Source: Humisphaera sp. (GTDB taxonomy: Bacteria; Planctomycetota; Phycisphaerae; Tepidisphaerales; Tepidisphaeraceae). Taken from it: a DNA stretch of 40,040 bases. The number at the start of each line of letters is the position of its first letter. Positions within the stretch are counted from its first letter, which is position 1. This document shows positions 9,778 through 12,368 of this stretch, piece after piece. The translations under genes and the position numbers were made by a program. The notes beneath the pieces were generated by a model. It was not told where the DNA came from. It did not search any database and saw only the letters and a list, made by a program, of their open reading frames with translations. Location of the stretch: positions 1 through 40,040 of the forward strand of contig JANXVV010000109.1 in NCBI GenBank assembly GCA_025351525.1, in the 5' to 3' direction.

Positions 9778-9965
9778 ACCTCCAGTGTTGTAGGGCATAA
9801 GCCGCAAAAGTTGTTCCGGCGAAACAGTTCAGCGATATTTTTGAAAGTGCTGCGATCGGCGTTACTACGCCTGCCATCGCAAATTTTGTTACCATCCTTC
9901 GTCCACCCGAAGAATGTTTCGAAAAAGCAACCGGAGAGTTCAATGAGGCGACCCTGGCGCTGTGC

Positions 9966-10931
9966 TTGAGCCGTCTGCATACTTTCACTCGCCTTCTCAT
10001 TTCACGTCGTCGCCCAAGGTGGATCGGCGGCGGACCGCAAGCCGATCTCAAAGACGTGGTGAAGGTCGTGTGGAACGCGGGCCATCTCAACACCGCGCAC
10101 GCCTGGATCGAGCAGACGCGCAAAGGCATCGGCGCGAAAGGGAAGTTCGCCTACTACGGCTCTGGAACAGTGACGAACGCCATCAGCGCCGAGGTCACGT
10201 TCAACGATGGGTCGATCAAAAACGTTCCGCTTTCACCTGATTTCCAATCGCCGGTGGATGATGGCATCCACCTCCGCAGCACCTACCGGCCCATCGAAAC
10301 CGGCGGTGGTGCCGTCTGGTTCGATGTGGATCTCGACCTGTACGCATCGCGCAACGAGCTGTTTCACAAGATCGATCATGTCGAGTGGCTCTTCGGGCCG
10401 CCTTTTGAAAATCAGCGACGAGTTGCCATCGGAAGCACGACCAATTTCAACGTTTCGGTCAGTACGCTTAAAGAGTTTCGCGTGCGGGCGAAGGTGATCT
10501 ATCGCGATGGCTCCGTGAAGGAACTGTCGCATTGGGTCGAACTGGGGCCGTCCGGAAAATATGCGGATGTGCGGCGGATTGAGATGCAGGCGACGAACTC
10601 CTATCTCGGGGTGCTGGCCGGCAAACCGAATTGGCGCGTTCGCATTCGTCCGATGGGCGATTGGGACACGCTCGACACGCTGCAAAGCGTGAAATACAAA
10701 GTGCCTGCTGCGGTATGGCCGGGCGGAATTCAGGAAGTGCCGGCGGAGAAAACCCCCCGATGGTCGATTCGAGTTCAGCGCATCGGAACCCTTCGACGGG
10801 ACGGCGGATATCGTCTTCAAAAGCGGGATGTTGACGCGCCTGCCATTCTCGGTGAGCAAGCTCGCCGATCGGCAGGATCAGATCGGCCTCGCGGTGGAGG
10901 TGGGCAGGGAGAAGCTGCCCAACTTCGGTAG
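9966..10931 (+). CDS. Tandem pYEATS-like repeat protein, 5' fragment (frame 0); probably a disrupted gene
   Basis: There is no ATG; the listed start is TTG. The translation contains repeated modules of the type W-x-hydrophobic ... L..I..V.Y/W ... F.hydrophobic ... V.F.DGS...L. Examples are AVWFDVDLDLYASRNELFHKIDHVEWLFGPPFENQRRV..FNVSV..FRVRAKVIYRDGSVKELSHWVEL. After about 10750 the translation becomes Arg/Gly-rich nonsense. Confidence 0.55.
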   Translation: MSRLHTFTRLLISRRRPRWIGGGPQADLKDVVKVVWNAGHLNTAHAWIEQTRKGIGAKGKFAYYGSGTVTNAISAEVTFNDGSIKNVPLSPDFQSPVDDGIHLRSTYRPIETGGGAVWFDVDLDLYASRNELFHKIDHVEWLFGPPFENQRRVAIGSTTNFNVSVSTLKEFRVRAKVIYRDGSVKELSHWVELGPSGKYADVRRIEMQATNSYLGVLAGKPNWRVRIRPMGDWDTLDTLQSVKYKVPAAVWPGGIQEVPAEKTPRWSIRVQRIGTLRRDGGYRLQKRDVDAPAILGEQARRSAGSDRPRGGGGQGEAAQLR

Positions 10932-11352
10932 AGCGGTCACCTGGAAAGCTTGGCCGAGCGGCCCGGAGATACAGTTGAAGCGCATTCTGCGTGTCGATTA
11001 TGACTACCGGGTCGACGGTCACACCCAGCACACGACGGTGGATCCCTCGCACAAGGAAATTCCCGAATTTCTAGGTTGCGGCGGCGTGGTGACGGATGGA
11101 TCGCCGCTGCGGGCCATCGTCTGGTTTAACGATGGGTCGCATCTCGCTTTATTTCATACCTTAAGTCCGATTGAAGAGGGCAAAGTGAGTGGTCAGCCGG
11201 CTGAATTGGAGGTGCAGCTGCGCGAGCGTTATTGGGAAATCGAAGCGGGCAAACCGACCTGGTCGATCCGCGCCGAATTGATCGGTTCGGCGGCGAATCT
11301 GGCGAAGATCACGTTGATCGATGAGACGATCGAGAAGCTGACTCGCGAATGA
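10828..11352 (+). CDS. Tandem pYEATS-like repeat protein, 3' fragment (frame +1), continuation of 9966..10931
   Basis: This frame is open from 10693 and continues the repeat pattern (DGRFEFSASEPFDGTADIVFKSGMLTRLPFSV, RAIVWFNDGSHLALFHTL, YWEIEAGKPTWSIRAELIG). The last module stops half-way, at ITLIDETIEKLTRE followed by the stop codon. Confidence 0.55.
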   Translation: MLTRLPFSVSKLADRQDQIGLAVEVGREKLPNFGRAVTWKAWPSGPEIQLKRILRVDYDYRVDGHTQHTTVDPSHKEIPEFLGCGGVVTDGSPLRAIVWFNDGSHLALFHTLSPIEEGKVSGQPAELEVQLRERYWEIEAGKPTWSIRAELIGSAANLAKITLIDETIEKLTRE

Positions 11353-11405
11353 TCAGATTGGACGATGCGGATCACGTCGGCAGCAGCCGGCCAACGGCCC
11401 AGCGA

Positions 11406-11793
11406 GCCGTTCATTTTTTTCGGAAGTGTGGACGCGGCGAAGCCGCCACCGATTCGGAGCGGGCTTCAACGACCTTAATCTGAAAAACGACCGACCCCGC
11501 CCGCTCCGAATCGGAGGTGATTTTGATGTCCACGGTTCCAAATAAAGTTCGATCTTGCAAATGGTGAAGGAGCAGCCGTCACTTGGCTTTATCGGCGTGC
11601 GCTCGGTAAAATAACATATGTGATGTTTCGTGATTTTTAGGGTCGCCGTTCATTTTTTTCGGAACCGTGGACATCAAAATCACCTCCGATTCGGAGCGGG
11701 CGGGAACAGGCGTTTCCCTGAACAAACTCGTTGAAGCCCGCTCCGAATCGAAGGCGGCTTCGCCGCGTCCACACTTCCAAATAAGGTTCGATC
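11406..11793. repeat. Two 149-bp units (11406-11554, 11645-11793) with direct flanks and mutually inverted 110-bp cores
   Basis: The left flanks GCCGTTCATTTTTTTCGGAA are identical. The right flanks TTCCAAATAA(A/G)GTTCGATC have 1 mismatch. Core 11426-11535 equals the reverse complement of 11665-11774, except for 2 nt in the arms and 11 of 24 nt in the centre. Confidence 0.9.
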
Positions 11794-11819
11794 CTGCGGG
11801 AGAAATCCTTCGGATTCGA

Positions 11820-12368
11820 TCAGGAGAACAGTTGTGACACCGCAATCGAGAAACCGGGGAACACCTCGCCGCCCTCCAACAAATCCGTGGCCTGCAATCG
11901 GCGGACACGCCCGTCGGGAGAATGCACCGAAACCGTGCGTCTGCGCGGGTTCAACACCCACACCGCAACCGTCCCCGCCTCAAGATACTCGGCGACCTTG
12001 TCCTCCACTTCCTCCAGGGTGTCGCCGGGCGAAATGATCTCGACGGCAATGTCCGGCGACCCTTTGAAAAAACCCTTCGGCCTCGGATTCGGGATTCGGG
12101 CTTTACAAACAAAAGCCACATCCGGCGCACGAACCGTGTCGGGATCGCGCGAAAGACAGAAGCCCGCTTCGGAGGTCAGCACATCCCCGAGATCATTGGC
12201 AAGCGAGTGCCGACCCATTGCCGTGGCCAATCGGCCGCCAAAAGTACCGTGCTCGTATCCGGCCGGGGCCATGGTTCGCAACTCTCCCTTCACCAGTTCA
12301 TGCCGCATATTCCCGCTGGGCATTTCCAGCAATTCAGCCGCCGTCATCAATCCGGTAGTTGTCGACAT
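11820..12368 (-). CDS. Uma2 family (DUF820) putative endonuclease
   Basis: MSTTTGLMTAAELLEMP..., HELVKGEL, EHG, PDVAF and PDIAVEIISPGD...K..Y match the PD-(D/E)xK Uma2 pattern. I prefer the ATG at 12368 to the ORF-track start at 12419, which would overlap gnd. Confidence 0.8.
   Translation of the reverse strand: MSTTTGLMTAAELLEMPSGNMRHELVKGELRTMAPAGYEHGTFGGRLATAMGRHSLANDLGDVLTSEAGFCLSRDPDTVRAPDVAFVCKARIPNPRPKGFFKGSPDIAVEIISPGDTLEEVEDKVAEYLEAGTVAVWVLNPRRRTVSVHSPDGRVRRLQATDLLEGGEVFPGFSIAVSQLFS

Follow-up and report, generated by a model that had tools for sequence, protein, structure and literature searches.

Probable deletion remnant of a secreted cysteine peptidase gene with tandem YEATS-like modules in Humisphaera sp.

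Results

An interrupted array of modules spans two reading frames

The DNA analysed here is a 40,040-nucleotide stretch from Humisphaera sp. (assembly GCA_025351525.1, contig JANXVV010000109.1), which is referred to below as the window. At the locus under study two open reading frames overlap on the forward strand, one in frame 0 (9966-10931) and one in frame 1 (10828-11352). Three-frame translation revealed that the module sequence quits frame 0 and resumes in frame 1 at GAG AAAA CCCCCC GAT, where an A4C6 homopolymer tract (10749-10758, forward strand) contains one extra base. When one C is dropped from this tract, both frames join into a 461-aa product and the corrected junction reads as a continuous module (...AEKTP|DGRFEFSASEPFDGTADIVF...). 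The closest intact homologue, encoded in a genome of the same genus (G002), agrees across this junction (KMPDGRLEFSVSKPFDGTADIVF), and its protein is matched in frame 0 before the tract and in frame 1 after it.

All features of the locus lie on the forward strand. The array begins in frame 0 with the C-terminal two thirds of module 1 (10042-10262), which is 69% identical to residues 441-515 of the G002 protein, is detected by its module HMM and was modelled by AlphaFold2 (AF2) with a pLDDT of 80-96. It is followed by a complete module 2 (10263-10571), which matches Pfam family PF20305 and aligns with canonical pYEATS modules, by module 3 (10572-10884), which is broken by the +1 frameshift and was identified by its HMM and by hhalign (module 2 versus module 3, Prob 98.2), and by a complete module 4 in frame 1 (10885-11199; 70% identity to G002, module HMM, AF2 pLDDT ~90-96). 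Of module 5 only the first half is present (11200-11307); both G002 and a close metagenome relative, L003, continue past this junction as ...ANLAK|VRGVKF.... The final segment, 11308-11352, comprises the native last 14 codons (ITLIDETIEKLTRE) and the stop codon, and is identical to the end of P0002/L003. These codons once supplied the final strand of the terminal module; the tail that they encode is now orphaned and is not folded into a domain in the AF2 model (pLDDT 38-58). In the frame-corrected protein the per-module HMMs place the partial module 1 at residues 20-99, module 2 at 100-202, module 3 at 203-306, module 4 at 307-411 and the partial module 5 at 412-460, so that the 461 aa correspond to 4.5 modules, each of about 100 aa. 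An earlier note, made from the sequence alone, had proposed four to five tandem modules in one frame-corrected protein of ~460 aa, and the HMM and hhalign analyses bear this out.

The modules belong to the YEATS superfamily but lack its reader-pocket His and Trp

Pfam pYEATS (PF20305) matched module 2 at residues 119-190 with an E-value of 3.2e-10 and 40.2 bits, against a cut-off of 26.9; scanned singly, modules 1, 3, 4 and 5 stayed below pYEATS significance. For a comparison of the modules among themselves, profiles were cut by column from the family alignment described below (31-43 members each) and compared with hhalign. Pairwise comparisons between module A, which precedes module 1 in the intact array, and modules 1-6 gave probabilities of 95.8-99.2% with E-values from 1e-9 to 1e-19. 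Module 7 connected to modules 1, 3 and 5 at 95-97%, and module 8, which is truncated at a contig end, did so at 85-97%, while a control comparison of the peptidase domain with the modules remained below 1%. By this measure modules 1, 3, 4 and 5 of the window are homologous to module 2 (Prob 96-99%). A strict iterative search from module 2 with 900 shuffled decoys recruited only orthologous module-2 copies, and an earlier convergence of such a search on all modules was discarded, having been obtained with a lenient threshold and a three-sequence database.

When the module-2 family profile, with the window sequence included, was compared with the PDB, all 37 matches were YEATS domains, headed by YEATS2 (E 1e-9) and followed by Yaf9, TAF14, GAS41, AF9 and ENL. 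AF2 was run on the two unaltered window pieces and returned all-beta models of tandem domains (mean pLDDT 90.9 and pTM 0.79 for one piece, 87.2 and 0.76 for the other). A Foldseek search with the tandem model retrieved the YEATS domains of GAS41, AF9 and ENL at a probability of 1.00 with TMt values of 0.51-0.53; generic tandem Ig-like arrays ranked above them because the query holds 2.5 domains. The earlier note had proposed structure prediction as a check for tandem Ig-like sandwiches; the models obtained are confident and show tandem all-beta domains. The pYEATS-like identity that the earlier note had proposed is upheld by the Pfam and PDB matches of module 2, and on the strength of these profiles we assign the window modules to the YEATS/pYEATS superfamily.

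The motifs of the acyl-lysine pocket have changed in module 2 of the window, LHPTF being replaced by LFGPPF and GWGTF by TLKEF, and the pocket His and Trp are gone. The pTM values of the AF2 models, together with the short linkers, suggest a fixed packing between modules and a rigid array.

An intact homologue carries a C1 peptidase ahead of nine modules

The G002 homologue is 68-70% identical to the window copy. Its gene (C7:3-3584, reverse strand) is an open frame of 1194 aa that reaches the contig end and continues on contig C350 via a 46-aa identical overlap, giving a protein of 1221 aa with a Sec-type signal peptide, a C1 peptidase and nine YEATS-like modules. Pfam detected both Peptidase_C1 (PF00112) and pYEATS in this protein, and among PDB entries its N-terminal 290 aa matched the cysteine protease 3ois best (E 5e-10, residues 53-259), with the Cys motif aligned. 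The search for intact orthologues that the earlier note had suggested therefore led to an array that is fused to a C1 peptidase behind a signal peptide. In terms of the colinear order mA, m1-m8, the window keeps a signal-peptide remnant, part of m1, m2-m4, part of m5 and the native C-terminus, in the same register as G002. The level of identity to G002 suggests that the window copy lies inside the peptidase-bearing clade.

The G002 gene (L013, C7:3-3584; L014, C350:2898-4839) is located in reverse orientation between znuA/znuC-like genes and a gene for a znuB-like permease. It appears to be inserted into a zinc-uptake operon, and the assembly breaks inside the gene. Synteny between the window and G002 is confined to ~700 bp around the PilZ gene, and G002 has no copy of the gene at that site. 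Moreover, the window gene and its G002 homologue differ with a dN of 0.20 and a dS of ~1.7, while the neighbouring PilZ genes have 95% amino acid identity and a dS of 0.89. In view of the different genomic position and a divergence far beyond that of PilZ, the G002 gene may be a paralogue or xenologue rather than a strict positional orthologue. Of the intact genes it is the most suitable model for the parent.

The window copy carries four disabling lesions

Lesions were mapped by aligning the G002 protein to the window with tblastn and inspecting the DNA at the junctions, and L003 was mapped likewise. A remnant of the native 5' end was found at 9943-10041 in frame 1 of the forward strand, where an ATG at 9943 opens a Sec-type signal peptide, MRRPWRCA*AVCILSLAFSFHVVAQGGSAADRK. 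The tblastn match of G002 residues 1-37 to this region (window 9943-10053) is weak (E 0.003) and includes an internal stop, a premature TGA at 9967-9969 where L003 has TTA. The TTG at 9966 overlaps this TGA within the signal-peptide remnant, in a different frame from the ATG at 9943, and is a spurious start. Of the earlier description of a decayed gene with a TTG start and one frameshift, the decay and the frameshift thus stand, but the start has to be moved to the remnant ATG. The same note had read plausible coding sequence upstream to 9801. The frame-0 ORF concerned (9801-9965) overlaps the true frame-1 start at 9943 and gave no match in a Pfam scan, and we rejected it as coding sequence: it is out-of-frame DNA of the promoter or leader and the signal-peptide region, matches no family, and owes its conservation in L003 to that of the DNA alone.

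At the 5' deletion junction (10041|10042, forward strand) the frame changes from 1 to 0, the left side corresponding to ...AADRK of G002 and the right side to ...(L)ADLKDVVKVVW of module 1. Relative to G002 (residues ~34-440) this deletion removed about 1.2 kb, covering the C1 peptidase, module A and the first third of module 1; with the whole domain deleted, the catalytic Gln, Cys, His and Asn of Peptidase_C1 are absent from the window. Further downstream lie the extra base in the A4C6 tract and an in-frame 3' deletion at a GGCGAAG microhomology (11301-11307), which joins mid-module 5 to the last 14 codons with loss of modules 5b-8a. The size of this deletion is 175 aa by comparison with L003 and ~345 aa by comparison with G002, and in L003 the 7-nt repeat GGCGAA(A/G) flanks both break points. 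The last module is indeed cut, as had been noticed before, but not by the neighbouring repeat: an internal deletion is responsible, and the native last codons and stop were kept. Set against intact homologues, the window copy therefore has the disabling lesions of a pseudogene, namely the TGA, the out-of-frame deletion, the +1 insertion and the internal deletion, as read from one assembly, a MAG of 640 contigs that is 89% complete.

Since the homopolymer sits exactly at the frame switch, the locus might be thought of as a phase-variable (contingency) gene whose expression is toggled by slipped-strand mispairing in A4C6. We regard this as scarcely credible, because translation that begins at the native start is already prevented further upstream by the nonsense codon and the out-of-frame deletion, because the G002 gene lacks a homopolymer at the site (KMPDGR is encoded there without a C run), and because C6 is short for a contingency tract.

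A close relative of the gene has decayed along a different route

In a collection of 5.8 billion proteins the sole close relative was represented by two short contigs, L003 and L004, which stem from different samples and assemblers; a word-based protein search retrieved nothing beyond one fragment and the product of the window itself. L003 and L004 are mutually identical and have 90-93% DNA identity to the window. The L003 copy starts with ATA instead of ATG. One of its deletions begins in the signal peptide and ends within the peptidase, a second, in frame, connects the peptidase KGxPT to the KGKPT of module 1, and a third, out of frame, extends from the middle of module 2 to the middle of module 4; modules 6-7 are lacking as well. 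A peptidase fragment is retained between the signal peptide and module 1. None of the break points in L003 coincides with one in the window.

The 191 codons shared by the window and L003 differ by 26 synonymous and 12 nonsynonymous changes, corresponding to a dN/dS of 0.13 at a dS of 0.22. This low ratio implies that purifying selection prevailed for most of the divergence and that inactivation was recent in both lineages. Judged from these alignments, decay of the gene in the window and in L003 appears to have been both recent and independent. The low dN/dS could also mean that the surviving fragments are still under selection.

These comparisons bear on another explanation, namely that the lesions are errors of MAG assembly or consensus, due to strain mixture or homopolymer miscalling, and that the organism has an intact gene at this site. 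The fragmentation of the genome into 640 contigs is compatible with this, as are the repetitive nature of the gene at the protein level, the fact that the G002 copy broke its own assembly (the contig end lies within the gene) and a dN/dS value that resembles that of a constrained gene. We nevertheless consider such errors improbable. Four separate lesions of three kinds would have to be artefacts, the modules have no DNA-level similarity that could collapse an assembly, and the 3' junction displays a clean 7-nt microhomology that is typical of real deletions. The relative from two independently assembled samples has its own reproducible multi-lesion structure, which means that the gene does decay in this lineage.

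The gene belongs to a rare family of peptidases with YEATS-like arrays

To define the family, an exhaustive HMMER search of 1.84 billion representative proteins was performed with the module region of the G002 protein as the query. This yielded 46 family representatives, mostly 1187-1262 aa long, that align colinearly from residue ~285. The family is rare, with matches in 9 of 401 sampled Planctomycetota genomes. Pfam scans across 45 members detected Peptidase_C1 in 38 and pYEATS in 30, and the eukaryote-type YEATS family PF03366 was matched in 12 (best E 4e-29). The putative catalytic residues Gln66, Cys71, His222 and Asn240 are conserved in 34-39 members, with at most one exception per covered position.

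Two size classes can be distinguished. Proteins of the ~1200-aa class, which are found in Planctomycetota and carry the NCBI name 'C1 family peptidase', have nine colinear modules in the same order in all members. The order is fixed and ancient, every module having orthologues in other species, so the nine-module array did not arise by recent tandem duplication. The ~600-aa class, with the NCBI name 'pYEATS domain-containing protein', has three canonical modules with LHPTF and GWGTF and occurs in Leptospira idonii, in Spirochaetota and in some Planctomycetota; in P0034 and P0046 (Leptospira idonii WP_135759584.1), three canonical pYEATS modules follow a signal peptide and a C1 peptidase. The canonical pocket residues (the His of LHP(S/T)F and the aromatic residue of GW/YG.F) are present only in these ~600-aa relatives, and this class would be the most promising one in which to ask whether acylated ligands are bound by secreted YEATS modules. 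Acyl-lysine reading is improbable for the nine-module class, whose modules have lost the reader-pocket His and Trp.

A Tepidisphaeraceae MAG (G034) encodes an intact protein of 641-654 aa (product P0028, L015:6471-8435) with a signal peptide and six modules, equivalent to m3-m8, and without a peptidase. It is a natural array-only derivative and, being apparently intact, indicates that array-only proteins can exist. Another tandem-pYEATS architecture is that of P0037, a membrane-anchored ENA metagenome protein of 509 aa with two identical tandem pYEATS modules in a perfect ~90-aa duplication and no peptidase.

The G034 protein and the low dN/dS of the surviving modules would both be consistent with a native stand-alone tandem-pYEATS protein in the window, perhaps lightly damaged, that acts as an effector-less sensor or decoy of a conflict system. 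This is quite improbable in our judgement. The window keeps a signal peptide of the peptidase form, with a stop codon and an out-of-frame junction behind it, the modules lack an in-frame start codon that is coupled to an export signal, and the frameshift and the truncated last module remain to be explained; in addition, L003 retains a peptidase fragment at the homologous place and conflict-system genes are absent from the vicinity. Rather, the peptidase in G002 and in 38 of the 45 members, the signal-peptide remnant in the window and the fragment in L003 indicate that the ancestor had a peptidase, which the window copy lost by deletion. The lack of an attached effector, which the earlier note had remarked on as an unusual architecture, is thus not supported as the native state.

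Neighbouring genes and elements

Genes in the window next to the locus encode YHYH, PilZ, Uma2, a 6-phosphogluconate dehydrogenase (Gnd) and a methyltransferase. No conflict or immunity genes (NTPase, TIR or other effectors) were found near the window gene or as fusions to it, and the neighbours of its relatives, including SecDF, DUF1501 and transketolase genes, are unrelated to defence. The conflict or immunity context that had been envisaged for the array is therefore not supported, as the neighbours are housekeeping or secreted-enzyme genes and the family is probably secreted. A PilZ gene also occurs near the gene in L016 and L017, but it is not detectably orthologous to the PilZ gene of the window, and we dismissed a conserved PilZ linkage as coincidence. 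The interval from PilZ to the pseudogene contained no remnant of a VWA gene.

Directly downstream of the pseudogene, positions 11406-11793 hold two inverted copies of an internally palindromic element of ~145 nt. About 10 or more copies of this element are present on at least 6 contigs of the MAG, often as inverted pairs ~240 nt apart, and it was also observed downstream of the gene in L003 and L004. An Rfam search of 11300-11900 assigned no family and returned only a chance miRNA match far below threshold.

The same genome encodes a second, unrelated pYEATS protein of 238 aa (L002, G000:C277:435-1151), in which a transmembrane region at the N-terminus is combined with a single pYEATS domain at the C-terminus (28.2 bits). 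Its gene is convergent with that of a 459-aa DNA methyltransferase-like protein, a more classical defence-like setting.

Discussion

Our analyses indicate that the region 9943-11352 is very probably a recently inactivated pseudogene of a secreted, xylellain-like C1 cysteine peptidase of ~1220 aa with nine YEATS-like modules. The parent gene would have encoded, behind a signal peptide, a C1 peptidase followed by nine diverged YEATS-fold modules in a fixed array. Four lesions are seen in the window copy: the signal peptide has acquired a nonsense codon, ~1.2 kb have been deleted out of frame together with the whole peptidase domain and 1.3 modules, the A4C6 run has gained one base, and the last 3.5 modules have been lost in frame through a microhomology-mediated deletion. 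The remaining 4.5 modules have no in-frame start, export signal or catalytic domain, and so the locus most likely yields no functional product.

In the intact relatives, the proteins would be secreted and the N-terminal protease would be their active part, while the rigid tandem array of YEATS-like modules may serve as an extracellular stalk or binding scaffold. For the nine-module class, a role as stalk or scaffold, or some other binding role, is more likely than the reading of acyl-lysine. A more far-reaching idea is that of an extracellular 'reader-guided protease', in which the YEATS modules of the ~600-aa class would aim a secreted papain-like protease at acylated lysines or amines that are exposed on foreign cell surfaces or within extracellular matrices, the nine-module class being a derived rigid stalk. 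We put this forward as a possible but rather doubtful scenario.

The apparent effector-less pYEATS array is thus very probably a deletion remnant, and ought to be listed neither as a novel architecture nor among defence genes. The family from which it derives is a rare and unstudied one of presumably secreted C1 peptidases with three or nine YEATS-fold modules, annotated in databases, which would extend a fold of chromatin readers and conflict systems to an extracellular setting. In a literature search we found no paper that describes a YEATS-papain fusion in bacteria and no experimental study of family members. The locus also documents a recent, deletion-driven loss in the Tepidisphaeraceae, with the same large gene being dismantled by different deletions in two close lineages and intact in a congener.

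In the literature, pYEATS is described as a domain of conflict systems that binds ligands inside the cell (bioRxiv 10.64898/2026.10.19.760177). Module 2 would have in common with pYEATS and YEATS domains (PF20305/PF03366) a probable Ig-like beta-sandwich of ~95-100 aa, and the shorter relatives keep LHPTF and GWGTF. The modules of the present family differ in that they are presumably extracellular, are attached to a protease and occur up to nine in a row, the nine-module class being devoid of the pocket His and Trp. With xylellain-type C1A peptidases (3ois), the intact relatives share the S/D-C-T-x-x-A-L-A Cys motif, the H-A-x-x-x-V-G-Y/F-D-D His motif and N-S-W-G. Known C1A enzymes, however, have a pro-region and no long C-terminal array, and in the window the domain is deleted. 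The NCBI entries named 'C1 family peptidase' or 'pYEATS domain-containing protein' (for example MFO1051687.1, MBI5431987.1 and WP_135759584.1) belong to the same family by colinear alignment, automated annotation having named one or the other domain; the window copy differs from them in being a pseudogene. Lastly, secreted proteases and adhesins with tandem Ig-like, PKD or FN3 arrays likewise combine a catalytic head with a rigid string of beta-sandwiches, and the top Foldseek matches of our tandem model were multi-domain Ig-like arrays, namely the MG domains of complement C3, RbmA and SiiE. Unlike in those proteins, the repeat unit here is a YEATS-fold domain, and the order of the modules is fixed and ancient.
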